Source: an uncultured Leptospira sp.
GTDB taxonomy: Bacteria; Spirochaetota; UBA4802; UB4802
Direction of reading: 5' to 3'
Length of the DNA stretch: 64,000 nt
Assembly (NCBI GenBank): GCA_964509195.1
Contig: CAZDWJ010000008.1
Location: 61,190-125,189 of the forward strand
Below are positions 8,250 to 46,860 of this stretch, piece after piece. The translations under genes and the position numbers were made by a program. Below the pieces are notes generated by a model. The model did not search any database. It saw only the letters and a list, made by a program, of their open reading frames with translations, and had not been told where the DNA came from. Numbering within the stretch: the stretch's first letter is position 1; each line of letters opens with the position of its first letter.

Positions 8250-8427
8250 ACATAATTAGTAAAATTTTGGCGCAGGTAAAAATAAGAAACCTACTGCCAT
8301 GCAGTAGGAGCCATCAGCCGGAAGGCATTCAACGGGGGACCCCATCCCCAGTTATAGTAGTGCAGCAACTGTTACAGATGGTAACAGTAAAAAGAATAGC
8401 ACTTTTGTCAATAGAATAAAAAATAAT
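8250..8427 (-). promoter_or_regulatory. structured 5' leader of the antiporter gene: promoter-like element followed by three hairpins, the last a terminator-like stem plus U-tract
   Basis: On the minus strand: TTGACA ... TACTGT, then hairpins CTGTTAC-N5-GTAACAG (8369-8387), GGGG-N-CCCC (about 8335-8349) and CCTACTG-N5-CAGTAGG (8290-8308) followed by TTTCTTATTTTT about 35 nt before the ATG. Confidence 0.3.
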
Positions 8428-12227: not shown

Positions 12228-12261
12228 TATAAATTTTATCTTTATCTAACAAAGAAGTCAT

Positions 12262-12292
12262 ACTACATAGAAATGGGGTGCACCGCACCCCA
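12262..12292 (-). terminator. intrinsic terminator-like hairpin downstream of the metallopeptidase gene
   Basis: TGGGGTGC-ACC-GCACCCCA, an 8-bp GC-rich stem, followed on the minus strand by a T-rich tract. Confidence 0.5.
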
Positions 12293-12319
12293 TCTGCATT
12301 CTAACTTTGTTTGCTTTAT

Positions 12320-13018
12320 TTACTCATCTCTTCCACCAAGCAGTCCAGCTCTGATAAGGAAATACAACAGTGTCACTATTGCGGAAGCTGCAGCTGCCAC
12401 ATAGGTCATGGCGGCAGCGGAAAGCACTTTACTTACTCCTGCAAGTTCACCAGAGCTTACAATGCCATAGCCCTGAAGTATTTCCTTTGCACGGGATGAC
12501 GCGTTGAATTCAACCGGCAATGTAATAAGCTGGAACACCACCACTAAACTGAAGAGCAATATCCCAAGCTTAACAAGCCCAAGTGATCCCATGATAAACC
12601 CTGCAAAGATGATGATCCATGAAAGGTTTGAACCAATTGATGCAGTTGGTGCAATTGCATTACGTAGCACAAGTGGGCTGTACTGTTTAGCATGCTGTAT
12701 GGCATGACCTGTTTCATGAGCCGCAACGCCAATTGCAGCCAGTGAATTGCTATTATATACCTCAGGCGAAAGCCTTACTACTTTCTTGATTGGGTCATAG
12801 TGATCTGATAAAAATCCAGTGGTTTCTTCAACAGGTATATGGGACAATCCATTTCGCTGTAGAATGATTCGTGCAACATCAGCACCAGAGTACCCCGACC
12901 GTGATGGAATTTGAGAATATTTATTAAACGCACTTTTTACCCTGAACGATGCCCAAAGAGAAATAAGCAATACAGGAGCCATCATCATCCAGTATAAAGG
13001 GTCAATCCCAAAAAGCAT
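12320..13018 (-). CDS. membrane zinc metallopeptidase (Zn_peptidase_2 / COG2738-like)
   Basis: 232 aa with HETGHAIQH (HExxH) and flanking TM helices, typical of this family. Confidence 0.65.
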   Translation of the reverse strand: MLFGIDPLYWMMMAPVLLISLWASFRVKSAFNKYSQIPSRSGYSGADVARIILQRNGLSHIPVEETTGFLSDHYDPIKKVVRLSPEVYNSNSLAAIGVAAHETGHAIQHAKQYSPLVLRNAIAPTASIGSNLSWIIIFAGFIMGSLGLVKLGILLFSLVVVFQLITLPVEFNASSRAKEILQGYGIVSSGELAGVSKVLSAAAMTYVAAAASAIVTLLYFLIRAGLLGGRDE

Positions 13019-19212: not shown

Positions 19213-20190
19213 TCACTTCTTAGCTAGATCGCTAAGAAATACAGTAATAGCTTTTTCTGCTTTGCCCCAGTCAGATTTGACATATTTTGATAACAGGACA
19301 TGATCCCCATTTTCAATTGCAACTTTTCTGCTTAAAGAATGGGGATTTCCATTGTTAAATGTATCGTAAGCCTTCAGCATTGCCTCAACCTGGGCAGAAC
19401 CGTCTTTGTGTTTGTCATCTTTATAATAATAGAGTAGGAGTACAGGACATGAAACTTTTTTGTAAATATCATCATTAGCAATTAGATCTCCAAGATCTAG
19501 CAATGAATGAAGTGATGCCCAGTAATTTTTTTGATACCAGTACATAGTCCAATTATCTTTAGGATCATCATACGGATCATGTCGTTCACGGTAGGTAGTA
19601 AATAGTAACACGGTTTTAAAAAAAGGCCTGAAAAACAGGGCATTCCCTACTGGATTTGCAAAGCGGTAGAATGGTGATACCAGTACAATAGCATCAGGTA
19701 TATCTGGATGCTCTGCGGCAATATAGGTTGCGATGCCTCCCCCCATACTTGTGCCAATGATTACCAGCTTATCTCCCAAAAGTTTTGTCATCTGTGCAGC
19801 TTCTATAGCAGTGTCAAGAAGCTGGTAGTATTCTGTGTTTTTATGATCATCCATGGTGGTACCATGGCCGGGCAATCGCAAATAGTAAGTATTATATTTT
19901 AATTTTTTGGCGATAGTATCTATCACAAATTGGCCCTCACCACGGGAAGCACCATAACCGTGAATGTAGAGCATTGCTATTTTTGTTTTGGGAGCAAACT
20001 TTAAAAGTTTTTCCTCATTGTTAGGTCGAACTCCTTTTTCTTTACTTTCTTTGAGTTTTAATGTGTAATATTCATCAAATGTAGCAGGAAGTTTTTTTTG
20101 ATTGTATGTATAGGTTATATGTGATTGATACGCATCAACTGCAATGAGTGCAGCAATTACAATAGCAAGTCCTATTAATATTTTTTTCAT
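19213..20190 (-). CDS. secreted alpha/beta hydrolase (esterase/lipase-like)
   Basis: Signal peptide and nucleophile elbow GTSMGGG (GxSxG) in an alpha/beta-hydrolase length context (325 aa). Confidence 0.7.
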   Translation of the reverse strand: MKKILIGLAIVIAALIAVDAYQSHITYTYNQKKLPATFDEYYTLKLKESKEKGVRPNNEEKLLKFAPKTKIAMLYIHGYGASRGEGQFVIDTIAKKLKYNTYYLRLPGHGTTMDDHKNTEYYQLLDTAIEAAQMTKLLGDKLVIIGTSMGGGIATYIAAEHPDIPDAIVLVSPFYRFANPVGNALFFRPFFKTVLLFTTYRERHDPYDDPKDNWTMYWYQKNYWASLHSLLDLGDLIANDDIYKKVSCPVLLLYYYKDDKHKDGSAQVEAMLKAYDTFNNGNPHSLSRKVAIENGDHVLLSKYVKSDWGKAEKAITVFLSDLAKK

Positions 20191-20288
20191 ATGGGTCCTC
20201 CTAAGATAATTATTCGATATCGATAAAATAATAAGATATTGAACAGATTAAGTAAAGAAATTTTTAAAAATTTTTTCTTTTTACTATC

Positions 20289-21503
20289 TTAAAACGCCAC
20301 AGCTGTTTTAATGGCTTTATGTAATCCTTTGTTGCTATTTACCTCAATCATTTCTCTGTACAGTTCAATACTGAATGTATGGGTTACCATAGATTCAATA
20401 TCAGGCATTTTTTTCATAAGCTCAATGGCTTTTTCAAAGATATGTTTTTGTTTTCCTGCTTCCTTTACGTAGCCATATCCATATACGCCTTTGACAGTAA
20501 TAAGTTTTAACCACAGCGGTGTTGGATCAAAAGAAAGCTTGGCAGTGATACCAACAAGGCTTACTGTACCCCCGGCACGTGTAATATTTATGGCTTTAGC
20601 AAAAGTTTTTGTTGAGCCAACCGTGTCAAATACTTTATCAAAACCACCTTGCATGATATGTGGACCCATCATGGGTTTATATATTTTTCCTTTTGTAAGT
20701 TCAACTATCTGCGTTTCATTATCTATCACTGTATTTGCCCCGTATTCTAATGCCTTTTCTCTGTGGAATAAAGAAGGCTCCATAATCGCTATGGTAGATC
20801 TAATATTTAATGCTCTCAGTGCTCGAATGAGCATAAGTCCAATAACACCGCAGCCAATGATACATATGCGGTCAGAATTTTGTGGTTTATTATCATAGAT
20901 TGCCTGCAGAGCCACACTTAATGGCTCAGTAAGCACTGCTGCTTTATCGCTGATTGTAGCAGAAACTACAAAAAGCTGTGCGCGGTGTGCAGGCAGATAC
21001 TGCGCAAAGCCGCCGTTGACTTCTTTACAAATTCCAGTAAACATCCCTGGGGCAATACTGCCTTTAGCAAAGTTTTCGCAGTTTGCAGGCCTGCCATTTT
21101 TACACGCCTGGCATAGCGGTTGCTGTCGCACAACACAGGAAAGCATGGGATTTACTACCACACGCTGCCCTTTTTTTAAACCGGTGCCTCCTGGCTCTTC
21201 AATAGTACCACACACCTCATGACCAATCACGCATGGAAATGATGTAAATGGTGAGGCCATGGGCGAGTCATGAAGCTGTATCAGGTTATAATCACTTCCA
21301 CAAAAGCCACAATAGGTGACTTTAACAATGGCCCAGTTTGTATCAAGAGGCTTTGGTGCAGGAATATCTACAAGTTTGAGTGTGCCAAGTTGGCTTTTAT
21401 AGAACACAGATTTTGAAAATGCACCAAGTGTTTTGAGCGCTATCCATTGTGGGACAGTTACATTGAATTGCAGTGCTTTCATATTTTCACATTCATCAAT
21501 CAA
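20289..21503 (-). CDS. zinc-dependent medium-chain dehydrogenase/reductase (MDR alcohol dehydrogenase family)
   Basis: GHEVCGTIEE (the GHE zinc-ligand motif), structural-zinc Cys cluster (CQACKNGRPANC), Rossmann motif IGCGVIGL. The listed start overlaps the upstream TPP-enzyme gene by 8 nt. An alternative ATG is at 21482. Confidence 0.8.
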   Translation of the reverse strand: MIDECENMKALQFNVTVPQWIALKTLGAFSKSVFYKSQLGTLKLVDIPAPKPLDTNWAIVKVTYCGFCGSDYNLIQLHDSPMASPFTSFPCVIGHEVCGTIEEPGGTGLKKGQRVVVNPMLSCVVRQQPLCQACKNGRPANCENFAKGSIAPGMFTGICKEVNGGFAQYLPAHRAQLFVVSATISDKAAVLTEPLSVALQAIYDNKPQNSDRICIIGCGVIGLMLIRALRALNIRSTIAIMEPSLFHREKALEYGANTVIDNETQIVELTKGKIYKPMMGPHIMQGGFDKVFDTVGSTKTFAKAINITRAGGTVSLVGITAKLSFDPTPLWLKLITVKGVYGYGYVKEAGKQKHIFEKAIELMKKMPDIESMVTHTFSIELYREMIEVNSNKGLHKAIKTAVAF

Positions 21504-23151
21504 ATTTCAGCGACTGATAAAAAAGTGGCGTTGCCGGGCTTGTCACTGTCGGATCTGTTAAGACATTTACACATGCTGGTTTGCCGCTTTCCTTTGCACG
21601 GATGAGCGCTGGTGCTATCGCCTCATCCTTATCAACAAATTCGCCATAACAACCCATTCCTTCTACAACCTTTTCGTAGCGGCGAATGCCAAGCTCAGCA
21701 CAGGTCACGCGCTCTTTGCCAATTGAAAGCTCCTGGCTGTGTTTGATCATGCCCCACGCACAGTCATTGTTCACAATGCAGGTAAATGGGATATTATGGC
21801 GCACCGCTGTGTCAAATTCAAATCCGTTAAATCCAAATGAGCCATCGCCTGATAGTACCACCACCTGCTTATTCGGATGAATTAGCTTTGCAGCAATGCC
21901 AAAGGGCACCCCCGCACCAAGGCATCCAAGAAGTCCTGCCGATTGTGATATAACACCTGCTTTGTGTTTAGATTGAAATCCTACCAGGCCAAAGTATGTG
22001 GTATCACCACCATCTACCACATACAGAGCGTCGGTGCCAAACACTTCCTGAATCTTTGCAACCAGCCTGATTGGATGAATTGGATCAGAGGAATTCTGTC
22101 TAAGTTTTATTTCACTGTCAATAAATGCGTATCCTGCCTGAGTCAGCATATCAAGCCACTGTGTATGATCTTTTTGTTCAACAAGTGGCAGTAATGCTTT
22201 GAGTGCTGCGCCTGCATCGCCGTAAAGTCCCACATCAGCTTTTCGGTTGCGGTTGATCTCAGTTGGTTCAATGTCAATGCGTATAACTTTTGTGGTTGGC
22301 GGAATTATTGCCCCCGACTGAAAGAGCCAGTTGAAGCGGATACCGGTCGCAACAATGACATCAGCCTGTGATAGTGTCATCATGAGTCCTACGTTGCCAA
22401 TATTCCATATTGATTGGGGATGATTATCAGGAAGCACTCCGCGTCCACCATTGAGCAAAATAAACGGTATGCCGGTTTTTTCTACAAAAGCCTGTAGTTC
22501 CAGCGCACAGTTGCTATATCCTATACCTGAGCCACCAATAAAAAGTGGCTTTTTAGCAGTGTTGATAATATCAGCAGCTGTGTAAAGGCCTGCCATATCT
22601 GGCACAGGCTTGCAATTATCATAACTTATCTCAAATTCAAAATCATCAACCGACCTGCCCAACACATCTGGCGGCAGTTCTAAAAATACTGGACCTGGCC
22701 TGCCACATGTTGCGTGTCTAAATGCTAAGTCTAAATATTCTGGAATGCGCTTTGTATCATAACAGGTAGCGCACCATTTCACAATGGGCTTTACCACATC
22801 AACCTGATTCATCTCCTGCAGTGCGCCTTTGTGGTCATCACGCAGTGGATGACGTCCGCACAGCACCACAACTGGTGCATTATCTAAATACGCATTTGCA
22901 ATGCCGGTAATGCCGTTGGTAAAACCTGGACCTGCGGTTAGAAAACATACTCCGGGATTTCCGGTATACACTGCCACAGCATGCGCCATCATCACTGCAG
23001 CTTGTTCATGGCGTACATCAATCGACCTTATACCATACTGCTGCAACCCGTCTAACAGCGCTTCAATATGCCCACCTGATATGCCAAATGCAAATTGCAC
23101 ATCACGCTTTGACAAATACTTCCCTATCAAATGGCCACCATTTATAGCCAT
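21496..23151 (-). CDS. thiamine-pyrophosphate enzyme of the 2-hydroxyacyl-CoA lyase / oxalyl-CoA decarboxylase family
   Basis: 551 aa. Blocks remembered from human HACL1 are matched: GVLPDNHPQS (HACL GVVPDNHPYC), QADVIVATGIRFNWL (FADVIVLFGARLNWI), and the TPP motif LSGDGSFGFNGFEFDTAVRHNIPFTCIVNN ([29 protein letters not shown]). Confidence 0.8.
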   Translation of the reverse strand: MAINGGHLIGKYLSKRDVQFAFGISGGHIEALLDGLQQYGIRSIDVRHEQAAVMMAHAVAVYTGNPGVCFLTAGPGFTNGITGIANAYLDNAPVVVLCGRHPLRDDHKGALQEMNQVDVVKPIVKWCATCYDTKRIPEYLDLAFRHATCGRPGPVFLELPPDVLGRSVDDFEFEISYDNCKPVPDMAGLYTAADIINTAKKPLFIGGSGIGYSNCALELQAFVEKTGIPFILLNGGRGVLPDNHPQSIWNIGNVGLMMTLSQADVIVATGIRFNWLFQSGAIIPPTTKVIRIDIEPTEINRNRKADVGLYGDAGAALKALLPLVEQKDHTQWLDMLTQAGYAFIDSEIKLRQNSSDPIHPIRLVAKIQEVFGTDALYVVDGGDTTYFGLVGFQSKHKAGVISQSAGLLGCLGAGVPFGIAAKLIHPNKQVVVLSGDGSFGFNGFEFDTAVRHNIPFTCIVNNDCAWGMIKHSQELSIGKERVTCAELGIRRYEKVVEGMGCYGEFVDKDEAIAPALIRAKESGKPACVNVLTDPTVTSPATPLFYQSLKFD

Positions 23152-35646: not shown

Positions 35647-36110
35647 GTTTAAATAAATATGATTAGCTTTGTTGTGTAAATAGTTACAGCATACAAATAT
35701 GGATGTATGCGCATAACAGTCAATGCAAATTTTTCTTAAACAGTGGTATGTTTATAGCTTATTGTGAAACAGTCCAATACCTTTGGAAAACAAAGATATA
35801 AAAATGCTATAGTAATGGAAGCTAAAAGTGGGGATAAAATGCGCAATGTAAACCATAGCGGTAAAAAAAAGATCAATGTATTTTAAGTTGGTTTATGCTC
35901 TGCAATATTAAAAAATGATATATGGTGTTTCAGTAAAGTGTTAGTTAATACGTTAGATTTAAGGGAACTTGAGTAAATGCATTTATAAAGAAGTACTCAT
36001 GTCATCCACCAATACACTGTGAAGATATTGCTTTAAAAAAAATTTAAAAAAATTCATTGACAAATCTAGTATATATAATAACATCAGACCATATGATAAT
36101 CTGATTTTTT

Positions 36111-37121
36111 TTGTGGACAAAAACCATGATTAAAATTGCTGAATTGCTTCCCCCGCGCCCTTCTGCATTGTGGACCATGGTAAAGCAATGTGGAATAGAG
36201 TATGTTGTTGGCGGTATGCAGCATTACGCTGGCTGGGAAAATATGCCAAAGGACTTCTGGCCATGGAGCTATAATTCACTGGTTCATATTAAGACCAATT
36301 ATGAAAACGGAGGATTTACGCTTGGAGTCATTGAATCCCGACCTCCAATGGAAAAAATAAAATTAGGCCTGCCGGGAAGGGATGAAGAAATTGAAAATGT
36401 CATAATGCTTATACAGAACATGGGGAAACTGGGCATTCCCGTATGGTGTTATGAATGGATGCCCGTGTTTGGTTGGACAAGGACTTCAACAACAACGCCC
36501 ATCCGCGGGGGTGCAATGGCTACCTCTTATGATCATGCACTAATGGAAAAGGCTCCAATGACTGAGTACGGAATTGTAACCGAAGAAACATTATGGAAAA
36601 ATCTACAGTATTTTCTAAACGCCGTTATCCCTGAAGCAGAAAAAGCAGGTGTAAAATTAGCCATGCATCCAGATGATCCACCCATTTCTCCTATTCGCGG
36701 TGTTGCGCGTATTATGCGCTCGGTTGAACATTTTCAAAAGTTACTGGATCTTTATCCAAGTGAGTTTAATGGCATTGCATTGTGTCAGGGTAATTTTGCA
36801 TTGATGACGGATGATCTTCCTGCTGTAATCAGAAAATTTGGAAAACAGGGTAAAATCTTTTTTGTCCATTTCAGGAATGTAAAGGGAACCGCACACAAAT
36901 TTACTGAAACATTTCATGACGATGGGATGATTGATATGTACGAATGCATGAAGGCATACTATGAGATTGGCTATGAGGGACTGATGCGTCCTGATCATGT
37001 TCCCACTATGGAAGGCGATAGCAATGATAATCCTGCCTATTCCTCAATTGGTAGGCTTTTTGCCATTGGGTACATAAAGGGCCTGGCGGAAGCAGTTGAA
37101 AAAAATCAATGCGGAAGGTGA
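36111..37121 (+). CDS. uxuA: D-mannonate dehydratase
   Basis: Conserved blocks match E. coli UxuA: VWCYEWMPVFGWTRT (VCYNFMPVLDWTRT), AMHPDDPPISPIRGVARI (AVHPDDPPRPILGLPRI), MRPDHV...AYSSIGRLFAIGYIKGLAEA (MRPDHG...GYSAIGRLKGLAEVRGV). Confidence 0.85.
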   Translation: MWTKTMIKIAELLPPRPSALWTMVKQCGIEYVVGGMQHYAGWENMPKDFWPWSYNSLVHIKTNYENGGFTLGVIESRPPMEKIKLGLPGRDEEIENVIMLIQNMGKLGIPVWCYEWMPVFGWTRTSTTTPIRGGAMATSYDHALMEKAPMTEYGIVTEETLWKNLQYFLNAVIPEAEKAGVKLAMHPDDPPISPIRGVARIMRSVEHFQKLLDLYPSEFNGIALCQGNFALMTDDLPAVIRKFGKQGKIFFVHFRNVKGTAHKFTETFHDDGMIDMYECMKAYYEIGYEGLMRPDHVPTMEGDSNDNPAYSSIGRLFAIGYIKGLAEAVEKNQCGR

Positions 37122-37129
37122 ATTAGATA

Positions 37130-37830
37130 TGGATACCATACAACCAATTAAGCGTAATAAGCTCACTGAATCGATAGTGAATCTGGTATTGACAAATATT
37201 AAAAATGGCACTCTTCCTCCAGGAAGCAAATTGCCTCCCGAGCGGGAATTGATGAAAAAATTGCAGGTGGGGCGTTCCACATTGCGTGAAGCGGTACAGT
37301 CGCTTGCACTTATGGGTATACTGGATGTAAAACCGGGTGAAGGAACTTTTGTAAGAACTATAGCCAAAGAAGAAATTATTGGCCCTCATTTATTTGTTCC
37401 ATTGATTGATAACGAAAGTATGGCAGATTTTTTTGAAGCTCGCCTTTTAATTGAACCACGCATCGCTGCGCTGGCAAGCAAAAGAAGGAATGCAGAGGAT
37501 ATTAAAGCTATTGAAGATACATTGGTAAAGACAAAACAACATATCAATAGTGGGGAAGATGTGGATCGCTTTGCAGGTCAGTTCCACTTGCAGATTGCAA
37601 AGGCATCAAAAAATATTGTGTGTGTCCGCTTTATGGAAGCCATTCTTTCATTCCTGGTTGGGAAAAGAGAAAACGCTGAACGTAATAAAGCCTTTTTACA
37701 ATGGGAGTATGAATCACACGAAAGCATTTTTACAGCAATAAAAAAGGGAGATGAAACAAAAGCATATAAGGCTATGGAGCAACATATTCAGGCAGTTTCA
37801 CAGTGGTATAAAAAATTAGATGTTGTATGA
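37130..37830 (+). CDS. GntR family transcriptional regulator, FadR/FCD subfamily
   Basis: N-terminal winged HTH (LPPGSKLPPERELMKKLQVGRSTLREAVQSL) and a C-terminal FCD-type all-helical domain. ATG at 37130 is chosen to avoid overlap with uxuA. Confidence 0.8.
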
Positions 37831-37853
37831 TTTTTCACTGATGGAGGTTTGCC

Positions 37854-40700
37854 GTGTATGGGAAACTATCTATTCTATTTTTGATACTTTTTTTTAATGT
37901 TGGGTATGCGATAGCAGCCACGTTCAATGTACTCATCTATCCAACGCCACTAGTATACATACACAATCAATCATATTTTCAGAGAATCATTATACAGGCT
38001 CATCAAGAGTTTGAAGGTGAAATTGTTGCCTGGATGGATGGTGTCAGCACAAAGAAGATAGTTACTACTCCAACAACTAATACAGCTATCGACTGTAAAA
38101 GAAATAGTATCAACTCGCCATCACAATTGAAAATTACTATAAGAAGGAATGATTCTATAGTTGCACAAAAAATCCTGTCAATACCTCCGGTAAAGGAATG
38201 GAAAATCTACTGTGTGCCCTTTGCGCACGTAGACATAGGTTTTACACAATCACAAAAGAATGTCCGCATTCAGAATCTGCGCAATATCGATACACATCTT
38301 TCCTTGTGCCAAAAGACAAAAAACTATCCGCCCGGCTCTCGATTTAAGCTTTTTACGGAAGTGAGCTGGCCTATTATTGAATACCTCAATGACCCGGCAA
38401 CACCTCACAGCAACAAGAATACACTTATTAAAGCATTGAAAAATGGTGATGTTGAGCTGGGTGCTTTTGTCATTTCTCATCAAAATAGGTTTATGAGTAC
38501 TTATGCACTTTTATCATCAGTGCGGCATACACTTACTATCGCACAAAAATACAACGTTGCCGTGAAAACTGCATGTATTCATGATGTCATGGATTTTTCC
38601 AAATTGCCAAAAGTCCTATATGCCAATAATATACCATACTGCCTGATTGGCCCCAATGACTCACGATATATAGTGCCGCCCCTTTTTTATCTAGCATCAC
38701 CTGATGGAAGCGCAAAGGTGCTGGCGTGGCATACCGTTGGGCTTAACGGGTATGGCGAAAATTTTGATTTGAATATGCGTCTTACATTGCCCTTCAAAGA
38801 CGATGATTTTAGCATAATGGAAACCAGCGTTGCACAGCATTTGGCGCAACTTGAAAAAGGATATCCCACAGAAGAAATTTCACGGTATTATGATTATGCA
38901 AACAAACAGTGGAACTATCCCTATGATGCATATCTTTTACCGTATTATCCGTCCCAGGGTGGCGACAATCAGCCTCAGACGATTGTACCTTCAGAAATTG
39001 CAAAGAGATGGAATGCAAAATTTATTAATCCAAAGATAGTCATTGCAACGCCTGCGGATTTCTTTGATTATGTATCAGCTGCGTATGGCGCACAGATTCC
39101 GATTATAAAAGGGGAATTGCCGCCATTCTGGGGTGAACAGATATATTTAGATTTTATTCAGGTTGATCCGCAGCGATTATCAATTAACTACTGGTATGAT
39201 TATGCACACCATTCACGCGGGATACATATGGTACAATCGCTACTTCTTGGTAAGCCTGTTGATATTACATCGTATAGTACACAAAGTCTTGAAGGGTACA
39301 TGGCAATCATACTTAATAATGACCACAATCCCAGACCTGTGCCATTCGGGAAAACGCATTACACAAAGCAGGATGTTCAAGACTGGATGGACACACGCAA
39401 TCAGTGGGTATATGCGCCTTTGAATGTTATGAAGGATGCAAAAGATGTACAGCAAAGCCGTAAGGAAGATGCTTTGTGGACGCTGGTGAACACACAAACA
39501 AATCCTCTAATTCTTGAAAATGCATTCTACCGTATTGCATTTGATAAAACGAAAGGCTGTATTACCAGTATTTTTGATGCACAGCTACAAAAGGAATTGG
39601 TAAACACACAGCACCGCTACGGCTTTAATCAATACGTTATAGGGGTACGGGGTGAAAACACTGGGAAGCGCAATTATTTTGACACCCAGGAAGGATTCAA
39701 ACGCGTCATATCCACGGTATATACAAATCCCAACAACGATTACAAAATAATTGTTAAAGGGTCAGAGCGTTCCTATTACAAGGGTATGGAATTGCTCTCT
39801 GAATTTTTGCATAAAGCATTTGGCATAAAGTTACCACCAACTTTGTTGAAAGTAGCGTATTTTTTCTATCAGCTGTTTACACCATCACTGTCGCTTACAC
39901 AGGAGATTATCATACCTGCTAATGAAAAGCGAATTGATTGTATACAACATTTTGAAGGTACTGCACCTCAAATAGCGGAACATTACTTTGCCTATCCTTT
40001 GGTTTTTGATGAGCTATCGTATGATTCTGGCTTTACGGTTGTAAAATGGAAGAGTCAAGACAATAGCGGTGACCTTATCCCAGCCGCTAAAAATACTGCA
40101 CCATTTAGAAGCATTAACGATACGCTGTATCCATTTCAGTGGATGTACGCAATCCCAACTTCTTTGTATTGTGATGGGTTTGTGTTGCAAAAAGACCGTT
40201 CACACTATGCATTATTTATCACACACAATAGCAAGGCGATAGTTCCAGATAATGATTCAAGTGCATTTTATCACTGTTGCATTGGATGGTCGTTGTGGGG
40301 TACTTTAGGGCTGGGACGCAATTTGCCAGATACTATCGCATTTAAAAGCACTTTTACAAGCTTTACGGCACACACAAAGAATGAAGCGATAGCAACTGCG
40401 TACAAACTTACATTTGATATATCAGGCCACACGAATCAATCGGCTGTAGAGTCACGTAATAGTAATGTGCGTGTTGTATATCTTCAACCTCTTTCAGAAA
40501 AAAGGATTGTTGTTGGTGTTTATGAGCTATCAGGCACGATGCAGTTTACTGAGCTTGTGATAAACACAAAACGTAGGATACTCAAGGCATATCATTCAGA
40601 CATTAATGGAAAAAAAATCAAAGCGCTGCAATTATCAGGAACTTCATTACCATTGAGTCTACATCCACATCAACTATCGTTTATAACATTTGAATTATAA
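37854..40700 (+). CDS. secreted glycoside hydrolase family 38-like protein (putative alpha-mannosidase-like), 948 aa
   Basis: Signal peptide. VPFAHVDIGFTQ resembles the GH38 N-terminal metal-binding motif (VPHSHNDPGW / HMHWDREW), but the first His is Phe here. An extra roughly 120-aa N-terminal domain is present. Family assignment is tentative. Confidence 0.4.
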   Translation: MYGKLSILFLILFFNVGYAIAATFNVLIYPTPLVYIHNQSYFQRIIIQAHQEFEGEIVAWMDGVSTKKIVTTPTTNTAIDCKRNSINSPSQLKITIRRNDSIVAQKILSIPPVKEWKIYCVPFAHVDIGFTQSQKNVRIQNLRNIDTHLSLCQKTKNYPPGSRFKLFTEVSWPIIEYLNDPATPHSNKNTLIKALKNGDVELGAFVISHQNRFMSTYALLSSVRHTLTIAQKYNVAVKTACIHDVMDFSKLPKVLYANNIPYCLIGPNDSRYIVPPLFYLASPDGSAKVLAWHTVGLNGYGENFDLNMRLTLPFKDDDFSIMETSVAQHLAQLEKGYPTEEISRYYDYANKQWNYPYDAYLLPYYPSQGGDNQPQTIVPSEIAKRWNAKFINPKIVIATPADFFDYVSAAYGAQIPIIKGELPPFWGEQIYLDFIQVDPQRLSINYWYDYAHHSRGIHMVQSLLLGKPVDITSYSTQSLEGYMAIILNNDHNPRPVPFGKTHYTKQDVQDWMDTRNQWVYAPLNVMKDAKDVQQSRKEDALWTLVNTQTNPLILENAFYRIAFDKTKGCITSIFDAQLQKELVNTQHRYGFNQYVIGVRGENTGKRNYFDTQEGFKRVISTVYTNPNNDYKIIVKGSERSYYKGMELLSEFLHKAFGIKLPPTLLKVAYFFYQLFTPSLSLTQEIIIPANEKRIDCIQHFEGTAPQIAEHYFAYPLVFDELSYDSGFTVVKWKSQDNSGDLIPAAKNTAPFRSINDTLYPFQWMYAIPTSLYCDGFVLQKDRSHYALFITHNSKAIVPDNDSSAFYHCCIGWSLWGTLGLGRNLPDTIAFKSTFTSFTAHTKNEAIATAYKLTFDISGHTNQSAVESRNSNVRVVYLQPLSEKRIVVGVYELSGTMQFTELVINTKRRILKAYHSDINGKKIKALQLSGTSLPLSLHPHQLSFITFEL

Positions 40701-40714
40701 AAGGAGGAAAACGT

Positions 40715-41419
40715 ATGGCACCAGCATATTCGCATGACGAAATTATAAAACTTTGTGAGCGATTGGAGAAAACCTACACGCCAGCAGTGTGTGATACGCT
40801 TGATGAGATGGGCTTTATGCATCAGGCAATGTGTTCTGGATTTATGCCCATTATGCCACGCGCTGCTGTTGCAGGGCCTGCATTTACAATGGAAGAAGCA
40901 AAGACACGCAAAAGCACACGATTAAAAGAGTATGATCCGGAATTTGTTGCCAAGGTGCTTGAGGATCTGTTTGGCACCATGCAAAAGGGGCAGGTGGTAG
41001 CAGTGAATACTAATGAATTTTACGGTGCAGGTGCGTGGGGTGAGCTTATGTCAACGACGTGCAAATTTTTTGGCGGCGTAAAAGGCGCTGTGGTTGATGG
41101 GCCAATTCGGGATATTAATCGCATTCTGGAAATTGAGTTTCCTGTGTGGGCACGCGGTAATATCCCCACCGATTCAATAGGAAGGGTTGATCTTGTTGGC
41201 ATTGGTGGTCCTATATGGTGTGGTGGCGTGCGGGTAAATCCCGGTGACATTATTTTTGCCGACTGTGATGGAGTGGTAGTTATTCCAATGAAGGATGTTG
41301 ATTTAAAAGAAGTGGTTGAAAAAGCAGAAGAGGTGGTGCAGGCAGAACGGCGTTCACGCCAGGAGATACGGCAGGGCAAGTCATTGCTTGATGTGTACCG
41401 CAAATATGGAAAGCTGTAA
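40715..41419 (+). CDS. RraA-family protein (class II pyruvate-aldolase / RNase E inhibitor fold)
   Basis: 234 aa. GGVKGAVVDGPIRDINRILEIEFPVWARG ... VNPGDIIFADCDGVVVIP matches the RraA/HMG-CHA aldolase family pattern. Confidence 0.8.
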   Translation: MAPAYSHDEIIKLCERLEKTYTPAVCDTLDEMGFMHQAMCSGFMPIMPRAAVAGPAFTMEEAKTRKSTRLKEYDPEFVAKVLEDLFGTMQKGQVVAVNTNEFYGAGAWGELMSTTCKFFGGVKGAVVDGPIRDINRILEIEFPVWARGNIPTDSIGRVDLVGIGGPIWCGGVRVNPGDIIFADCDGVVVIPMKDVDLKEVVEKAEEVVQAERRSRQEIRQGKSLLDVYRKYGKL

Positions 41420-41433
41420 TGTGAGGAAAGGAT

Positions 41434-42405
41434 ATGAAAACAATAGTTGTAACGGGATGTTCAGGGTATCTGGGGCAGCATGTAGTGCAAACGTTACTAC
41501 AGGAACAATATGCAGTCACCGGCATTGATATAAAAGAATCACCGGCACAGGGTCAGAGCAATTTTACGTTTGTCAAAGGCGATATTGTTGATTCTGAATT
41601 TGTGATGAATGCCTGTAAAAATGCTAATGCCGTAGTCCATTGTGCTGCTGCGCTTGCGCAATTTGTCAAAGATGCACAACGCATGCATGATATAAATGTA
41701 ATTGGTACAAAGAATATCATTGGAGCGTGTAAAAAACATGCCATAAAACAATTAGTATTTATCTCATCGGTTGAAGTGTATGGTATTGATGTGCCCGTTC
41801 CCTGTCCTGAGGATGCACCTTTGCGCCCTGTATGTCCATACGGCGAACACAAGGTTGAAGGGGAGCGGATGTGTGCAGAATTAGCCGGGAAAGGCTGTGG
41901 TGTTGCAATCCTCAGACCACCAACAATTAACGGACCCGGGCAAAACGAGCCTTTCCTTGTTGAACAGATGAAAGCTATAAAACAAGGAAAGCCAGTAATT
42001 CTTCCAGGTGGAGGAAAAACACGATTGCAGATGGTGGATGTCCGCGATGTTGCTCAGGCAGTGCTGCTGTCACTCAAAAAAGTTAGCAAAGGAGTACTCA
42101 TTGCAAATATTGCTAGCGATAATGTGCCTACCATCCGCCAGATGGTAAAAGCTCTGTTTAATCATGCAGGAAAGAAAGAAAAGATACTATCTGTACCTGC
42201 ACCTGTAGCACGTGCTATTGTCAAAACCCTTTCATTGTTTGGCATATCACCGCTGGAACCACAACATCTGGAAATAGCACTGCGCGATTATGTGTTTGAT
42301 AATACACGAGCAAAGAAAGAGTTGGGATGGAAACCAACCAAAAATGACATTGAAAGCGCTATTGATGCATATGAGTGGTTTATCCACCACAATCCTTCGA
42401 CGTAG
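41434..42405 (+). CDS. NAD-dependent epimerase/dehydratase family (extended SDR) protein
   Basis: VTGCSGYLGQHVV Rossmann motif, catalytic YxxxK (YGEHK). 323 aa. Confidence 0.8.
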   Translation: MKTIVVTGCSGYLGQHVVQTLLQEQYAVTGIDIKESPAQGQSNFTFVKGDIVDSEFVMNACKNANAVVHCAAALAQFVKDAQRMHDINVIGTKNIIGACKKHAIKQLVFISSVEVYGIDVPVPCPEDAPLRPVCPYGEHKVEGERMCAELAGKGCGVAILRPPTINGPGQNEPFLVEQMKAIKQGKPVILPGGGKTRLQMVDVRDVAQAVLLSLKKVSKGVLIANIASDNVPTIRQMVKALFNHAGKKEKILSVPAPVARAIVKTLSLFGISPLEPQHLEIALRDYVFDNTRAKKELGWKPTKNDIESAIDAYEWFIHHNPST

Positions 42406-42540
42406 CATTGAAAATAATGGAATTAGCTATGAAACAGGGGGTTCCACTGCAAAAATTAGTCACTCATAAATTTAGCATTGATGAAGCTGAAGCGGCATTG
42501 CTACGAAGTGATTACATGAAAGCAGTAATTGTGCCATAAG
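42375..42540 (+). pseudogene. relic 3' end (about 50 codons) of a zinc-dependent MDR dehydrogenase gene
   Basis: Translates to ...SFDVALKIMELAMKQGVPLQKLVTHKFSIDEAEAALLRSDYMKAVIVP*. This is the typical C-terminus of threonine/sorbitol-dehydrogenase-like MDRs (..iTH.F.L.e...Af......K.vi). No N-terminal part exists. It overlaps the SDR gene's last 30 nt in another frame. Confidence 0.45.
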
Positions 42541-42560
42541 TATATTGATGAGGATGAGTC

Positions 42561-43262
42561 ATGAACATTTTTTTTATATTAATTGGACAGGCAACCGTTG
42601 TTATTAACGTAAATGGGATAGTCTTTATGACCGATCCCTGGTGGGGCTCTTTTGAATTTTTGCGTGCAGTCCCATTGTCAATAAATCCAGAGGAAATATC
42701 ACCTCTGCATTATATGCTAGTTTCACATAATCACATTGATCATTGGTGTGAGAGTGCCATCAAACTGGCAAAAGAAAAGGATTGCATGGTTATAGGGTCA
42801 ACAAAATCGGTAAAACGTGCCCGTAAAAAGAGTGTTAAACAATGTAAGGCTCTGACCCCGGGCGATAGTGTTGATTGCAATGGTGTTATGGTGTATGCGG
42901 TTCCAGGATTTCATCCATTTGCAAAGGATGCAATAGGCTTTATCATACAAAAAGGTAATATTACACTGTATTTTTCGGGGGATACGCTGTACACTGAAAA
43001 TTTACTCAAGGCTCTGACCCCATACTCAGTAACTATCGCCATGATACAGGTTGCCTGTTCCACCTACCCACTGGTGGGTAAAGACGGGATGGATTTGGAG
43101 GCGGCATCACGCTTTGTTGCAGATGTAAAACCTGGGATTGTAATACCCATACACTATCAGATAAAGGGAAAGTACCTCACTTACGCGCAGTTACAAAACT
43201 GGAACGTTGATGCACAAAAAATTATTTTGCCCCATGGGAAGGAGTTTCATTTGCAAATATAA
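42561..43262 (+). CDS. MBL-fold metallo-hydrolase (possible lactonase)
   Basis: 233 aa. HNHIDHW metal-binding motif. Confidence 0.7.
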   Translation: MNIFFILIGQATVVINVNGIVFMTDPWWGSFEFLRAVPLSINPEEISPLHYMLVSHNHIDHWCESAIKLAKEKDCMVIGSTKSVKRARKKSVKQCKALTPGDSVDCNGVMVYAVPGFHPFAKDAIGFIIQKGNITLYFSGDTLYTENLLKALTPYSVTIAMIQVACSTYPLVGKDGMDLEAASRFVADVKPGIVIPIHYQIKGKYLTYAQLQNWNVDAQKIILPHGKEFHLQI

Positions 43263-43508
43263 GGGAACTTTTAAAAAACCATTTATAAGGTTGTTCCCTT
43301 GTGGGCACAATATATAGGCAAAAACCGCTTTTTTGCTGCTAATTGTAAGGATGAAAGTGGTTTTTAGAGGTGCCCATAATTTCTGGGATTTTAGTGCAAT
43401 TGTTGTAACAAAATGAGAATAGCATGAAAATGTTATATTGATCACTACCAAAAGGAGAAACATCCAGGGTTGTAAAGACTAAATTTTCGATCGCATAATG
43501 ACCTCAAA

Positions 43509-44858
43509 ATGACATTACAAAAAAATATTTTGGAGGAAAGTATGATAGAAAAGCCACCTTCTGGTTTTAACCTCATCAAAGTGTTGGGTCCGGGGCTTGT
43601 GTGGTCGGCAAGTGCAATTGGGGTGTCAGAGCTTGTGTTTGCCACACGTTCTGGCGCGTTATTTGGATATTTGTTGTTATGGGCGCCGATTGTATCTCTT
43701 GTGATGAAGTATGCTATCTTTGAGCTGGTTGGCCGATACACCATTGCAACAGGTCAAAATGTCCTGATTGCATTTGCCCAGGTTGAAATTGATCTAAAAC
43801 TTTTCAAACTAAAAACCGGGTGGGTGATAACACTTTTCTGGATAGTGTTTATTGCAAGTGTTTCAGGAATAGCAGGTATTGCCTTGTCGGTTGGTAGCTG
43901 CATATACGGGCTTGTTCCTGCAATTTCAATGGAGATGGCAACGGTGTGTTCGATAGTAGCTGTTGGAATAATTTTGTATTTAGGAAGTTATGTAACGCTG
44001 GAAAAAATATCACGGGTGCTGGTTTTTGTAATGATACTGTTTTTAGTGTATGCATTAATCGAAACTTCTCCCAATCCAGCTGAGATGGCAGGTGGTCTGC
44101 TACCACGGGCGCCGTTTTACACGTTACGTGAGCTCATTCCGCTTTTAGGGTGGACTGGTGCAGGAGCCATAGGCGTGGTATGGTATTCATTATGGATAGA
44201 AGGCAGTAAACGTGGTAAAGGCGATAACACCATAGATACAGACGAAGACAAGCACAGGATAAAAAAATGGATAACCATTAATCAAATAGATTTAAGCATT
44301 AACACTCTCATCACCGCACTGTTAACAGTATTGTTTTTGATTGCAGGTGCAGTGATATTATACCCCAGAGGTATAGTTCCTAAAGGTGAGCAATTAGGCC
44401 TGCACATATCACAGATTGCAGGGGAGAGCTTTGGCAAAGCAGGCGAGATAATTTTTCTTGTTGGCATCTTTGGCACACTGTTTAGCACATTGCTTGCAAA
44501 TATTGATGGATTATGCCGTGTAGCATCTAACTCTGTGTGGTATAGGCGCAAAAAAGATGGCGATAGCAAGTTGCATTATTATAGACTTTTTGTTTTTGTT
44601 TACGTGATACTCACAGCTCTGTTTGCAGTGGTTTTTCCTGCCCCGGTAATACTATTGCAAATTTCTGCAATCATTGATACAGTTTTTTTGCCACTGGTTA
44701 TTGGTCTTGGTATCTACATCTGCCACACACACCTGCCAGATATCTACCGGCCGGGGAAGACACTTACCATAACTGCAATAGCATCAGCACTTTTTTTTAC
44801 TTTTTTTATTGGACTATTTTTCTGGGCTGTGATAATGAAAGTTAACTTTTCAATGTAA
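43509..44858 (+). CDS. Nramp-fold (APC/LeuT superfamily) transporter lacking the canonical metal-binding motifs
   Basis: 449 aa, 11-12 TM helices. The TM1 region GPGLVWSASAIGVSE...FGYLLLW aligns to the Nramp GPGFLMSIAYIDPGN...GFKLLW block with DPGN replaced by GVSE. The TM6 MPH position reads WYS. Confidence 0.6.
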   Translation: MTLQKNILEESMIEKPPSGFNLIKVLGPGLVWSASAIGVSELVFATRSGALFGYLLLWAPIVSLVMKYAIFELVGRYTIATGQNVLIAFAQVEIDLKLFKLKTGWVITLFWIVFIASVSGIAGIALSVGSCIYGLVPAISMEMATVCSIVAVGIILYLGSYVTLEKISRVLVFVMILFLVYALIETSPNPAEMAGGLLPRAPFYTLRELIPLLGWTGAGAIGVVWYSLWIEGSKRGKGDNTIDTDEDKHRIKKWITINQIDLSINTLITALLTVLFLIAGAVILYPRGIVPKGEQLGLHISQIAGESFGKAGEIIFLVGIFGTLFSTLLANIDGLCRVASNSVWYRRKKDGDSKLHYYRLFVFVYVILTALFAVVFPAPVILLQISAIIDTVFLPLVIGLGIYICHTHLPDIYRPGKTLTITAIASALFFTFFIGLFFWAVIMKVNFSM

Positions 44859-44868
44859 GCACGTAAGT

Positions 44869-45891
44869 ATGAATACTGTTATGTTCGATAGCTCAAAATA
44901 TTTTATCTGCTTTGGGGAAGTGCTCCTACGCATGTCACCACCAGATACTCAGCAGTTGATGCAAACAAATGTGTTTCATTCATATTTTGGTGGTGCTGAA
45001 GCCAATTGTGCAGTGTTGCTATCGCAGCTTGGATTAAAAACAAAATTAATTACTGCAATACCTGATAATGACCTTGGGAAGGCTTTAGTGCGATATTTTA
45101 GATCATTTGGTATTGCTATGGATAATGTCATAGTAGTGCAAGATGCACGAGTGGGAGTTTATTTTTATGAAAAAGGCATAGGTGTGCGTCCTTCACGATT
45201 AATATACGACCGGGGTCACAGTGCGTTTGCATTAATACAAAAAGGTGACATCAACTGGGAAGAGGTTTTGAAAGACTGTGGCTGGTTTCATACTACAGGG
45301 ATAACGCTTTCACTATCGCCGGTAATAGTTGAAGAAACACTGAAAGCATGTGACATTGTGAAGAGTACTCACGGCATTGTATCGTTTGACATTAATTATC
45401 GCTCAACATTATGGAAAGATATACAGTTAGCTAAAAGTATTATTGGCGAATTTGTAAAAAAAGTAGATGTGTTAATTGGGAATGAAGAACATATAAAGAT
45501 GCTTTTATTGTCGGAGAATGTATCACACTATTATGATATTATAGATTATCTTTTTACAAAGTTTCCCAATTTGAACAGTATATTGCTAACACATCGATAT
45601 GGTACAACCGCTTCTGAGGTTGAAATAGGAGCAGTAGCAGCAACACATGATGCTAGTACAGAATTAAAAATTAGAAAACTGCATAATGTTGTTGACCGGG
45701 TGGGTTCAGGAGACGCGATGGCAGCAGCGTTTATGTACGGATTAATGAGTAGCTACACGTTAGAATACTGTGTTGATTTTGCTATAGCAGCTGGTGGTCT
45801 GGCGCATATGATCGATGGTGATAATTTTATTGTGAGTGCTAACGATATCCTTACAGTAATGAAAGATGCAGGCTGGCAATTAATCCGGTAA
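44869..45891 (+). CDS. kdgK: PfkB-family sugar kinase, 2-dehydro-3-deoxygluconokinase-like
   Basis: 340 aa. GGAEAN, DINYRSTLW (KdgK DNNYRPRLW) and the C-terminal GSGDAMAAAF anion-hole motif. Confidence 0.75.
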   Translation: MNTVMFDSSKYFICFGEVLLRMSPPDTQQLMQTNVFHSYFGGAEANCAVLLSQLGLKTKLITAIPDNDLGKALVRYFRSFGIAMDNVIVVQDARVGVYFYEKGIGVRPSRLIYDRGHSAFALIQKGDINWEEVLKDCGWFHTTGITLSLSPVIVEETLKACDIVKSTHGIVSFDINYRSTLWKDIQLAKSIIGEFVKKVDVLIGNEEHIKMLLLSENVSHYYDIIDYLFTKFPNLNSILLTHRYGTTASEVEIGAVAATHDASTELKIRKLHNVVDRVGSGDAMAAAFMYGLMSSYTLEYCVDFAIAAGGLAHMIDGDNFIVSANDILTVMKDAGWQLIR

Positions 45892-46860
45892 GTGGGGGGG
45901 GTTATGGTATCAAAAAAAAGAAGATACATCATAGCTCTTGTAATCGCAGCATGCATTGTACTGGTGGTAATCTGTAAACCAGTTGATAAAGGAAAACCAT
46001 ATAATGATTACTTTGCTTCACTAAATAAAGAATTAAAAACAAGTGGGATTGCATTACCGTGTATCATAATAGATCTTGACTGAGTAGACCATAATATACA
46101 TCAAATGAACAGTTTACTGAAAGCTCCACTTAATTATCGTATAGTAACAAAATCACTGCCTTCCATAGAGTTGCTGGATTATGTGATGAAAAAAAACCAG
46201 CACTAATAAGCTCATGGAATTTCATCAACCATATCTGTCGCTTATAGTAAAAAAGTATGGTTATAACCTGGATATTCTTTTGGGTAAGCCGTTTCCCATA
46301 CAAAGCGTACAAAAATTTTATAATGATTTTCCAAAGAGTGACTATCAGCAGTTATTTGGTGAATGATATTGCAGCAGGCTCATGTGTGGTTAAACCATCT
46401 ACTTTTGATTTTTTTACTCTTGATACACATATTCCAGCACTATTTATTGCAGCTCCAATTTTGAAAAAAATTAATAGCTATGAGGTGCCATTTCTTGAAC
46501 TGTTTAACTGACTGATAGAGTGATGGGATCCAAACTGCAGGCAAACATATTATACGTATGGTGGTGGGTGGAACGAACTTATAGATTCTCCTGAAGGTGT
46601 TTTTGTAAATGCACTGACTGCAAGCCCTCCCAACGAAAATTTGCTTCCCAATCAGAGTATGCTGAATGGGTCATCGTCAACAAAACTTGAAGTGGGGGAT
46701 TTTGTCTTTTATAGGCCAAAACAGGGGGATGCGTTATTTCATTTCTGAGATATTATCGTTATTAGGAATGGTAAAATCATTGCATCGTGGAAACCATTTC
46801 CTGAAAGATTTTAATTTTACAATATCTTTACAGGGTCTTCATAATTTCTTTATAATTATG
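45892..46860 (+). pseudogene. frameshifted remnant of a DSD1-family PLP enzyme gene (D-serine deaminase / D-threonine aldolase-like, alanine-racemase-fold)
   Basis: Segments in three frames: ...GIALPCIIIDLD* / VDHNIHQMNSLLKAPLNYRIVTKSLPSIELL / KLMEFHQPYLSLIVKKYGYNLDILLGKPFP / EGVFVNALTASPPNENLLPNQSMLNGSSSTKLEVGDFVFYRPKQGDALFHF* / DIIVIRNGKIIASWKPFPE. They follow the N- and C-terminal domain order of DSD1 enzymes but are interrupted by multiple stops and frameshifts. Confidence 0.5.

Follow-up and report, generated by a model that had tools for sequence, protein, structure and literature searches.

Genes of the locus and their protein families

The stretch of DNA described here (the window, 64,000 nucleotides of contig CAZDWJ010000008.1 from an uncultured Leptospira sp. 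of the Spirochaetota) contains, at positions 36111–45891, a cluster of eight genes that may encode an oxidative pathway for a mannose-type sugar in which an RraA-like protein carries out the final cleavage. All eight same-strand open reading frames (ORFs) listed in the initial annotation were found, with gaps of 7 to 246 nt between them, and profile searches with Pfam and NCBIfam upheld the family to which each of the eight proteins had been assigned. The flanking genes, an isoamylase in divergent orientation on the upstream side and ABC permeases on the downstream side, are unrelated to the cluster. The features, all of them on the forward strand, are:

36057–36105 (+): promoter/operator region, with TTGACA, a -10-like element and then ATCAGACCAT
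36126–37121 (+): uxuA, mannonate dehydratase family; likely start ATG 36126, ORF open from TTG 36111
37096–37830 (+): gntR, FCD-type GntR regulator, likely start 37129 (PF00392 and PF07729)
37854–40700 (+): secreted, highly divergent glycoside hydrolase with the fold of family 38 (GH38), 948 aa (PF01074, AlphaFold model, Foldseek)
40715–41419 (+): RraA-like protein, candidate class II (metal-dependent) 2-keto-3-deoxy acid lyase (PF03737)
41434–42405 (+): extended short-chain dehydrogenase/reductase (SDR), NAD(P)-dependent oxidoreductase, candidate aldose 1-dehydrogenase (PF01370)
42384–42536 (+): remnant of a Zn-dependent medium-chain dehydrogenase (Zn-MDR), last 51 codons (tblastn)
42561–43262 (+): metallo-beta-lactamase (MBL)-fold metallohydrolase, candidate sugar lactonase (PF12706 and PF13483)
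43509–44858 (+): Nramp-family carrier without metal-binding motifs, candidate sugar or sugar-acid importer (PF01566, NF037982)
44869–45891 (+): kdgK, PfkB kinase resembling 2-keto-3-deoxygluconate (KDG) kinases (PF00294)

The start of uxuA is most likely the ATG at 36126 rather than the TTG at 36111, because the N-terminus MIKIAELL is common to all UxuA orthologues and every one of them begins with it. The gntR gene probably starts at 37129. ARAGORN calls a 92-nt tRNA-Tyr within uxuA (36794–36885, +), which is almost certainly a false positive, because Rfam finds no tRNA there.

UxuA scores 322 bits against PF03786 (cutoff 23.7) and 252.7 against NF003027 (cutoff 191), in agreement with its earlier prediction as a mannonate dehydratase; against the stricter equivalog TIGR00695 it falls slightly under the cutoff (185.9, cutoff 199.55). 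The kinase matches PF00294 with 116 bits. Its best NCBIfam models are all of the KDG type and none reaches its cutoff: the top match is the kinase half of a KHG/KDPG aldolase-kinase fusion (293, cutoff 700), and the KDG/KDGal kinase models are also among the best (180, cutoff 440). It carries a GSGD motif and a DINYR motif within DINYRSTLW, the counterpart of the DNNYRxxLW-like block by which it had been recognised, and is most similar to KDG kinases.

As predicted, the regulator belongs to the FCD type, with a winged helix-turn-helix domain (PF00392, 64 bits) and an FCD domain (PF07729, 77 bits). Its best NCBIfam matches are NanR (147 bits) and LldR, both below cutoff. FCD-type regulators often sense carboxylates. 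Upstream of uxuA there is a promoter-like match, TTGACA-N16-TAACAT, and TTGACA followed by ATCAGACCAT is present at this position in nine of the nine orthologous loci. The candidate operator proposed earlier, the palindrome ATCAGA-N11-TCTGAT, is not conserved; only its left half, ATCAGACCAT, is kept, an observation that is new here. A full palindrome, ATCATCAGA-CCA-TCTGATGAT, does precede uxuA in one orthologous locus (L006). We read the whole locus as one operon controlled by a putative GntR/FCD repressor.

The 948-aa protein has a signal peptide that is kept in its close homologues, one of which has a lipoprotein box. Its similarity to GH38 at the level of Pfam is marginal for the N domain (PF01074, 27.2 bits, cutoff 25) and below cutoff for the C domain (18.5, cutoff 25). 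An AlphaFold model was built on an alignment of homologues (pLDDT 88.6), and the 40 best Foldseek matches to it were all GH38 alpha-mannosidases (E 5e-30 to 6e-18, TM 0.5–0.63, identity only ~10%), including Bl_Man38A-C, Ams1, SpGH38 (2WYH), Golgi mannosidase II and jack-bean mannosidase. Five residues (H125, D127, D244, D371 and H491) do not vary among 40 homologues. In P0045, a homologue that is a bona fide GH38 with the full Pfam domain set of the family, the aligned positions fall in the motifs HSHVD, DV, GGDN and EH. We take these residues to be the metal-binding His-x-Asp, the nucleophile Asp, the acid/base Asp and the second His of GH38. The GH38 relationship first suggested for this protein is thus borne out by fold and by metal and catalytic residues: it is, as modelled, a secreted, very divergent GH38-fold hydrolase with its metal and catalytic site intact. 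It has in common with the GH38 alpha-mannosidases the overall multidomain fold, the metal-site His-x-Asp, Asp and His, and a candidate acid/base Asp, but it differs from them in its low identity and Pfam scores and in an extra N-terminal beta-sandwich. If the assignment is true, it widens the known range of GH38-related hydrolases.

The extended SDR (PF01370, 149 bits) has the cofactor motif TGxxGxxG (T7GCSGYLG) and the catalytic Ser and YxxxK motifs (S111/S112 and Y136GEHK), as befits the family named for it at the outset. It is below the cutoff of every NCBIfam equivalog, among them the nucleotide-sugar models for GalE (99, cutoff 262) and dTDP-glucose dehydratase (84.8, cutoff 365). NCBIfam also includes extended-SDR equivalogs whose substrates are free sugar acids or sugar phosphates, such as D-erythronate dehydrogenase and Azf. 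Orthologues of the SDR with ~50% identity are found in Asgard archaea (Sigynarchaeota, Lokiarchaeota and Promethearchaeia).

The 155-nt spacer between the SDR and MBL genes is not empty. In a frame different from that of the SDR it codes for 51 residues (42384–42536) that are 63–67% identical, by tblastn, to the C-terminus of a Zn-MDR dehydrogenase. An intact Zn-MDR gene lies between SDR and MBL in two sister loci (L019 and L020) and in the clusters with an IlvD-type dehydratase described below, and locus L018 has a similar MDR remnant of 45 codons. Because the spacer codes for the C-terminus of an MDR that is intact at the same place in L019 and L020, it is a deletion scar, and the dehydrogenase is therefore dispensable in this lineage. 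This scar is also newly described here.

The MBL-fold hydrolase matches PF12706 (63 bits) and PF13483 and has the metal motif HxHxDH (H56NHIDH), which agrees with its predicted fold. It is weakly similar to the UlaG lactonase and to TM1162, and its score against the UlaG equivalog NF008688 is far from the cutoff (45.5, cutoff 306). It is a candidate lactonase, a role suggested by its context. A Haloferax pentonolactonase was considered as an MBL-fold precedent and dropped, as a review places the pentonolactonases in the SMP30 family.

The carrier belongs to the Nramp/MntH divalent-metal transporter family by PF01566 (66.2 bits, cutoff 29.8) and NF037982 (107.5, cutoff 50), so the predicted Nramp fold stands. 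Unlike those transporters, however, it lacks the metal-binding motifs: by comparison with a hand-entered E. coli MntH sequence, the DPGN of TM1 is replaced by GVSE (or GVAE), and the Met-Pro-His (MPH) of TM6 is missing, in all 20 of the 20 cluster-linked copies. A metal substrate is unlikely because both motifs are missing, and if the carrier does import a sugar or sugar acid, a non-metal substrate class would be added to the Nramp fold. NCBIfam would still label the motif-less carriers of the window and of loci L003–L051 as divalent-metal transporters.

Conservation of the cluster and the wider RraA module

When GTDB genomes were scanned, the complete cluster turned up, with its gene order unchanged, in metagenome-assembled genomes of Spirochaetota and on one contig binned as Rikenella. 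A metagenome scan added further copies, for a total of ca. ten distinct lineages with 48–95% protein identity. The gene order is kept in these lineages far beyond chance, and the cluster is therefore a true operon. One lineage (L006, L007 and L023) has uxuA inverted and downstream of kdgK. The identity of each protein to that of the window, in the genome loci of the GTDB scan, is as follows.

RraA: 87–94% (95% in metagenome locus L018)
Nramp-like carrier: 79–94%
UxuA: 84–89%
SDR: 69–82%
MBL: 65–78%
GH38-like: 52–69%
KdgK: 48–72%

Of all the proteins in the operon, RraA is conserved best. It is 87–95% identical among clusters of the spirochaete type and 56–78% identical in other RraA-centred clusters; among the matches listed, homologues with at least 70% identity occur in Desulfomonilia, Chloroflexota and other phyla. 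In two loci the RraA protein is enlarged, by a 155-residue N-terminal extension in L028 and by fusion to an SCP2 domain in L017.

About 45 RraA-centred loci were annotated. The recurring set consists of RraA, the same extended SDR, the same MBL hydrolase and one sugar-acid dehydratase, and this dehydratase comes from unrelated families: UxuA in clusters of the window type, the enolase superfamily in L013, and IlvD/EDD in ca. 20 loci (among L016, L017 and L024–L055). In L010 a UxaA/GarD-like dehydratase adjoins RraA, with neither SDR nor MBL. Frequent additions to the module are a carrier, either motif-less Nramp-like or of the major facilitator superfamily (MFS); a Zn-MDR; and GH38-fold proteins of three subfamilies. 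A nickel-pincer hydroxyacid epimerase of the LarA type accompanies the IlvD/EDD or UxaA-like dehydratase (L024–L055, L010 and L017) and never UxuA, a pattern that is suggestive of epimerisation adapting the aldonate to the dehydratase. The more distant RraA subfamilies (~40% identity) belong to oxidative sets of four genes in the textbook arrangement, such as that of L079, which encodes a classical SDR, an Amidohydro_2 protein (a lactonase family), an enolase-family dehydratase and RraA.

Since unrelated families can replace the enzymes of all the other steps while RraA stays, RraA is most simply read as acting on the product of the dehydratase, a 2-keto-3-deoxy acid. The displacement of the dehydratase likewise supports an order of dehydrogenase, lactonase, dehydratase and keto-deoxy-acid cleavage. 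The module as such is, judged by its gene content, probably an oxidative route from aldose to keto-deoxy acid, and it offers a clean set of co-evolving, interchangeable enzymes. The initial annotation had regarded the operon as unusual in bacteria, but it is not rare, being widespread in uncultured bacteria.

Two neighbours were not counted as evidence for the pathway, argC beside the SDR in L013 and IlvD beside RraA in L012, since both score as genuine housekeeping enzymes. The argC of L013, which is the Desulfomonilia version of the cluster, lies at 11693–12643, scores 430 against TIGR01851 (cutoff 230) and shares 4 nt with the end of the SDR gene; it may be there by chance, or it may be a recruited semialdehyde dehydrogenase.

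In the automatic source names the SDR appears as a nucleoside-diphosphate-sugar epimerase and RraA as a regulator of RNase E, and taken at face value these would make the cluster a set of unrelated neighbours. This is highly improbable. Order and membership are kept across phyla while single steps are repeatedly displaced, the intergenic gaps are short, one conserved promoter/operator lies ahead of the cluster, and the RNase E regulator equivalog gives 35 bits with a cutoff of 136.

The RraA-like protein, the proposed pathway and its alternatives

The RraA-like protein matches PF03737 with 110 bits (cutoff 24.5). It belongs to the same fold family as the HMG/CHA aldolase (LigK/PcmE; PDB 3NOJ), and in an alignment of the two Arg-123 of the aldolase corresponds to R132, Asp-124 to D133, Glu-199 to E211, Gly-101 to G109 and Asp-102 to E110. 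All five residues are invariant across the family alignment of the RraA-like protein, so that the catalytic Arg-Asp pair, the Glu metal ligand and the Gly-Asp/Glu pyruvate pocket are kept. In the aldolase, Arg-123 is essential and Asp-124 and Glu-199 are metal ligands (PMC5065237). The similarity, however, amounts to only ~63 bits over the C-terminal 140 residues, and the context here is sugar-acid rather than aromatic catabolism. The HMG/CHA aldolase equivalogs are not reached (NF006731 94.9, cutoff 179; TIGR02798 81.9, cutoff 304.5), and the protein is therefore a member of the family but no orthologue of LigK/PcmE. Nor is it an orthologue of the RNase E regulator, because its scores for those equivalogs are well under cutoff (NF006875 35.1, cutoff 136; TIGR02998 18.4, cutoff 241). 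Wrong annotations of RraA relatives, as RNase E regulators, MenG or HMG aldolase, are routine. From residues and gene context, the balance tips slightly towards RraA being an aldolase or lyase for KDG or its 6-phosphate (KDPG); if it is, a large and highly conserved branch of the RraA-like family would gain a function in sugar catabolism.

The pathway that we propose would begin outside the cytoplasm, where the periplasmic GH38-fold hydrolase would free a sugar to be taken up by the Nramp-like carrier that lacks a metal site. The extended SDR would then oxidise C1 of the sugar to give a lactone, the MBL hydrolase would open the lactone, and UxuA would dehydrate the resulting aldonate, most likely D-mannonate, to KDG. 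The RraA-like protein would split the keto-deoxy acid into pyruvate and a triose, acting as a divalent-metal class II pyruvate lyase in which the Arg stabilises the enolate, and KdgK would supply a phosphorylated branch. We infer every substrate in this scheme, including the choice between KDG and KDPG for RraA. At the level of gene content, the candidates for dehydrogenase, lactonase, dehydratase and lyase are encoded together and are co-conserved. The probability that the locus encodes such an Entner-Doudoroff-like oxidative route for a mannose-type hexose, with RraA cleaving the keto-deoxy acid, is put at roughly 0.5.

The order of steps would be that of the known non- and semi-phosphorylative Entner-Doudoroff-type routes (archaeal glucose/galactose, L-rhamnose LRA1-4, Dahms, and Thermoplasma AldT with ManD) – a 1-dehydrogenase, a lactonase, a dehydratase, an optional KDG kinase and a pyruvate-releasing lyase – and in those routes, as in the module, interchangeable families fill the dehydratase slot. 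The operon differs from them in that its lyase slot would be filled by an RraA fold rather than by Eda, DHDPS or HpcH, and in its MBL-fold lactonase and extended-SDR dehydrogenase candidates, its Nramp-like importer, its bacterial host and the secreted GH38-fold enzyme attached to it. The canonical hexuronate lower pathway of UxuA, KdgK and Eda also resembles the locus, in having UxuA and a KDG-type kinase in one operon, but UxaC, UxuB and Eda are lacking here, and mannonate would presumably come from oxidation of an aldose and not from reduction of fructuronate. This pathway logic was already put forward in the initial annotation; its sequence of reactions gains support from non-orthologous displacement across more than 40 related loci, while the naming of mannose is only an inference and the role of the SDR is ambiguous.

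D-mannose is the best candidate for the sugar because of the GH38 fold, UxuA, the link of LarA with IlvD/EDD and the gene content of haloarchaeal mannan clusters, and it stands at about an even chance. For Natronoglomus, manD, a 'UDP-glucose 4-epimerase' and RraA are named in a figure legend on its beta-mannan gene clusters (PMC10963439). An oxidative mannose route of AldT, UxuA and KdgK has been proposed for Coxiella (PMC13252051), and LarA homologues include mannonate/gluconate 2-epimerases (PMC7583248). The LarAs of the clusters were considered as orthologues of the 2-epimerase GntE and this was rejected: malate racemase is their nearest match (200 and 158 bits), and against the NCBIfam hexonate-epimerase model they score only 98. 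Their similarity to 4nar, presumably the T. maritima GntE structure, is 43–64 bits.

The locus could also be read as a uronate/aldarate route. The GH38-like enzyme would then free a uronic acid, the SDR would be a uronate dehydrogenase and the MBL protein an aldarolactonase; an aldarate would be the substrate of the dehydratase, and RraA would be a dehydratase/decarboxylase like FlDet (see below). The enolase-family dehydratase of L013 is nearest to glucarate dehydratase and the dehydratase of L010 to galactarate dehydratase, both far below cutoff; many clusters have an ACS-type sugar-acid MFS carrier; and the FCD-type regulator, of a class that often responds to carboxylates, would fit as well. 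In such a route, however, KdgK and, where present, Eda would have no role, the semialdehyde dehydrogenase that would be needed is not present, UxuA scores as a mannonate dehydratase, and the GH38 enzymes are known as alpha-mannosidases. We consider it improbable.

The oxidative mannose-type route would need a lyase, and the initial annotation had noted that UxuB, UxaC and Eda are lacking at the locus and that RraA might take the place of Eda. None of the three was found in the scans of the window: tblastn with a hand-entered E. coli Eda query gave no match in the 64 kb, and UxaC/UxuB-type families were not seen among the 38 of 51 window ORFs (those of at least 150 aa) that were scanned by family profile. 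Eda also gave no tblastn match in the loci of the spirochaete type with their fetched flanks (up to 10 kb on each side where the contig allows). The same query does detect Eda in seven other clusters. Within the fetched flanks, KdgK without an adjacent Eda occurs only in the spirochaete type, and there in every copy. RraA acting as a KDPG aldolase would complete a path to pyruvate and glyceraldehyde-3-phosphate from genes of the window.

Several observations weigh against this reading. In the seven clusters just mentioned, a canonical Eda (TIGR01182 193, cutoff 156) and KdgK are paired with an RraA that is 71–75% identical to that of the window. L052 (10001–12367) consists of RraA, Eda and KdgK alone, where a second aldolase would be redundant, and L028 (9521–13012) consists of RraA, SDR, Eda and KdgK. 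L017 also encodes a protein of the DHDPS family. In clusters of the L006 type (L006, L007 and L023), an HpcH/HpaI-like gene (250 aa, a weak match, with no PDB or NCBIfam match) is divergent from uxuA, and the region between the two (L006 19124–19349, and its equivalents in L007 and L023) carries the operator-like palindrome. The only characterised RraA-like enzyme of a sugar pathway, FlDet, is a dehydratase/decarboxylase and no aldolase (PMC8563752). As for the SDR, the PDB entry nearest to it (8rdg, only 87 bits) is a GDP-sugar 4-epimerase. Many clusters have the extra Zn-MDR dehydrogenase between SDR and MBL, so the aldose dehydrogenase may be an enzyme other than the SDR, and the assignment is ambiguous. 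The minimal operons L052 and L028 tie RraA to the KDG/KDPG node even without a dehydratase. Of the earlier proposal, then, the lack of Eda holds for the spirochaete-type loci, but Eda lies beside RraA in seven others, and that RraA replaces Eda for KDPG in this organism appears doubtful on present sequence comparisons.

The same observations lend themselves to a different division of labour, with the same upper pathway. A canonical Eda elsewhere would cleave KDPG, and RraA and SDR would form a separate branch from KDG resembling FlRed/FlDet: the SDR would oxidise KDG or its aldehyde form to 2-keto-3-deoxy-hexarate, which RraA would dehydrate and decarboxylate to 2-oxoglutarate semialdehyde. 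FlDet of Flavobacterium sp. UMI-01 is an RraA-like 2-keto-3-deoxy-hexarate dehydratase/decarboxylase that acts after an SDR (PMC8563752). By this description it resembles the RraA of the operon – RraA-like, with a 2-keto-3-deoxy sugar acid as substrate, downstream of an SDR – but it belongs to an alginate context and feeds a 2-oxoglutarate-semialdehyde dehydrogenase, of which there is none here. RraA adjoins the SDR in the window and in L013, L017 and L028, it stands beside Eda and KdgK in the seven clusters and in the RraA-SDR-Eda-KdgK operon of L028, and in L010 it is coupled with a Mo aldehyde oxidoreductase. Yet an aldehyde dehydrogenase for 2-oxoglutarate semialdehyde is in or beside none of the examined clusters, and of the 120 RraA homologues listed (down to ~40% identity, most of them without a source name) none is labelled Flavobacteriia, which hints weakly that FlDet is a distant relative. 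This division is, on balance, unlikely.

In a further possible scheme RraA would act first: a 3-deoxy-2-ulosonic acid (KDN, for instance) would be imported and split by RraA into pyruvate and mannose, and the rest of the operon would then oxidise the mannose. The two fullest clusters, L029 and L053, would use each gene once under this scheme (RraA, dehydrogenase, lactonase, LarA-type epimerase, dehydratase, KdgK and Eda), clusters of the IlvD type usually start with RraA, and the sialate regulator NanR is what the regulator of the operon matches best in NCBIfam (147 bits, below cutoff). But the scheme is built on chemistry alone, no sialidase or KDN-ase is present, and clusters of the L010 and L079 types read more simply with RraA after the dehydratase. 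It is less probable still than the uronate/aldarate route.

The preferred reading thus remains the oxidative route in which RraA cleaves the keto-deoxy acid formed by UxuA. If true, it would give bacteria a second, oxidative way to use mannosides. No published characterisation of the module was found in the literature searched. Taken as a whole, the joint proposal – that RraA is an unrecognised class II KD(P)G aldolase replacing Eda in these spirochaetes, that the Nramp carrier has switched to a sugar or sugar acid, and that with a divergent secreted GH38 these make up a bacterial oxidative mannose pathway widespread in uncultured anaerobes – is tentative, and at least one of its parts would more probably fail.

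Other features near the cluster

Between kdgK and the ABC permease genes there is a stretch of ~0.9 kb (45905–46800) with stops throughout all frames. Within it are pieces of an earlier ORF that had a membrane anchor at its N-terminus, and the stretch is missing from the syntenic locus L003. An alanine-racemase-fold pseudogene was guessed for it and set aside, as the reconstructed translation had no Pfam match.

A second Zn-MDR dehydrogenase is encoded within 19213–23151 (-), adjoining a thiamine pyrophosphate-dependent enzyme and an alpha/beta hydrolase. It has a weak glucose-dehydrogenase C-terminal signature and is ~25% identical to the MDR of the clusters. Elsewhere in the window, a fluoride riboswitch (RF01734, 43.8 bits) at 8298–8358 (-) lies directly upstream of a gene of the Na+/H+-exchanger family (7026–8249, -).

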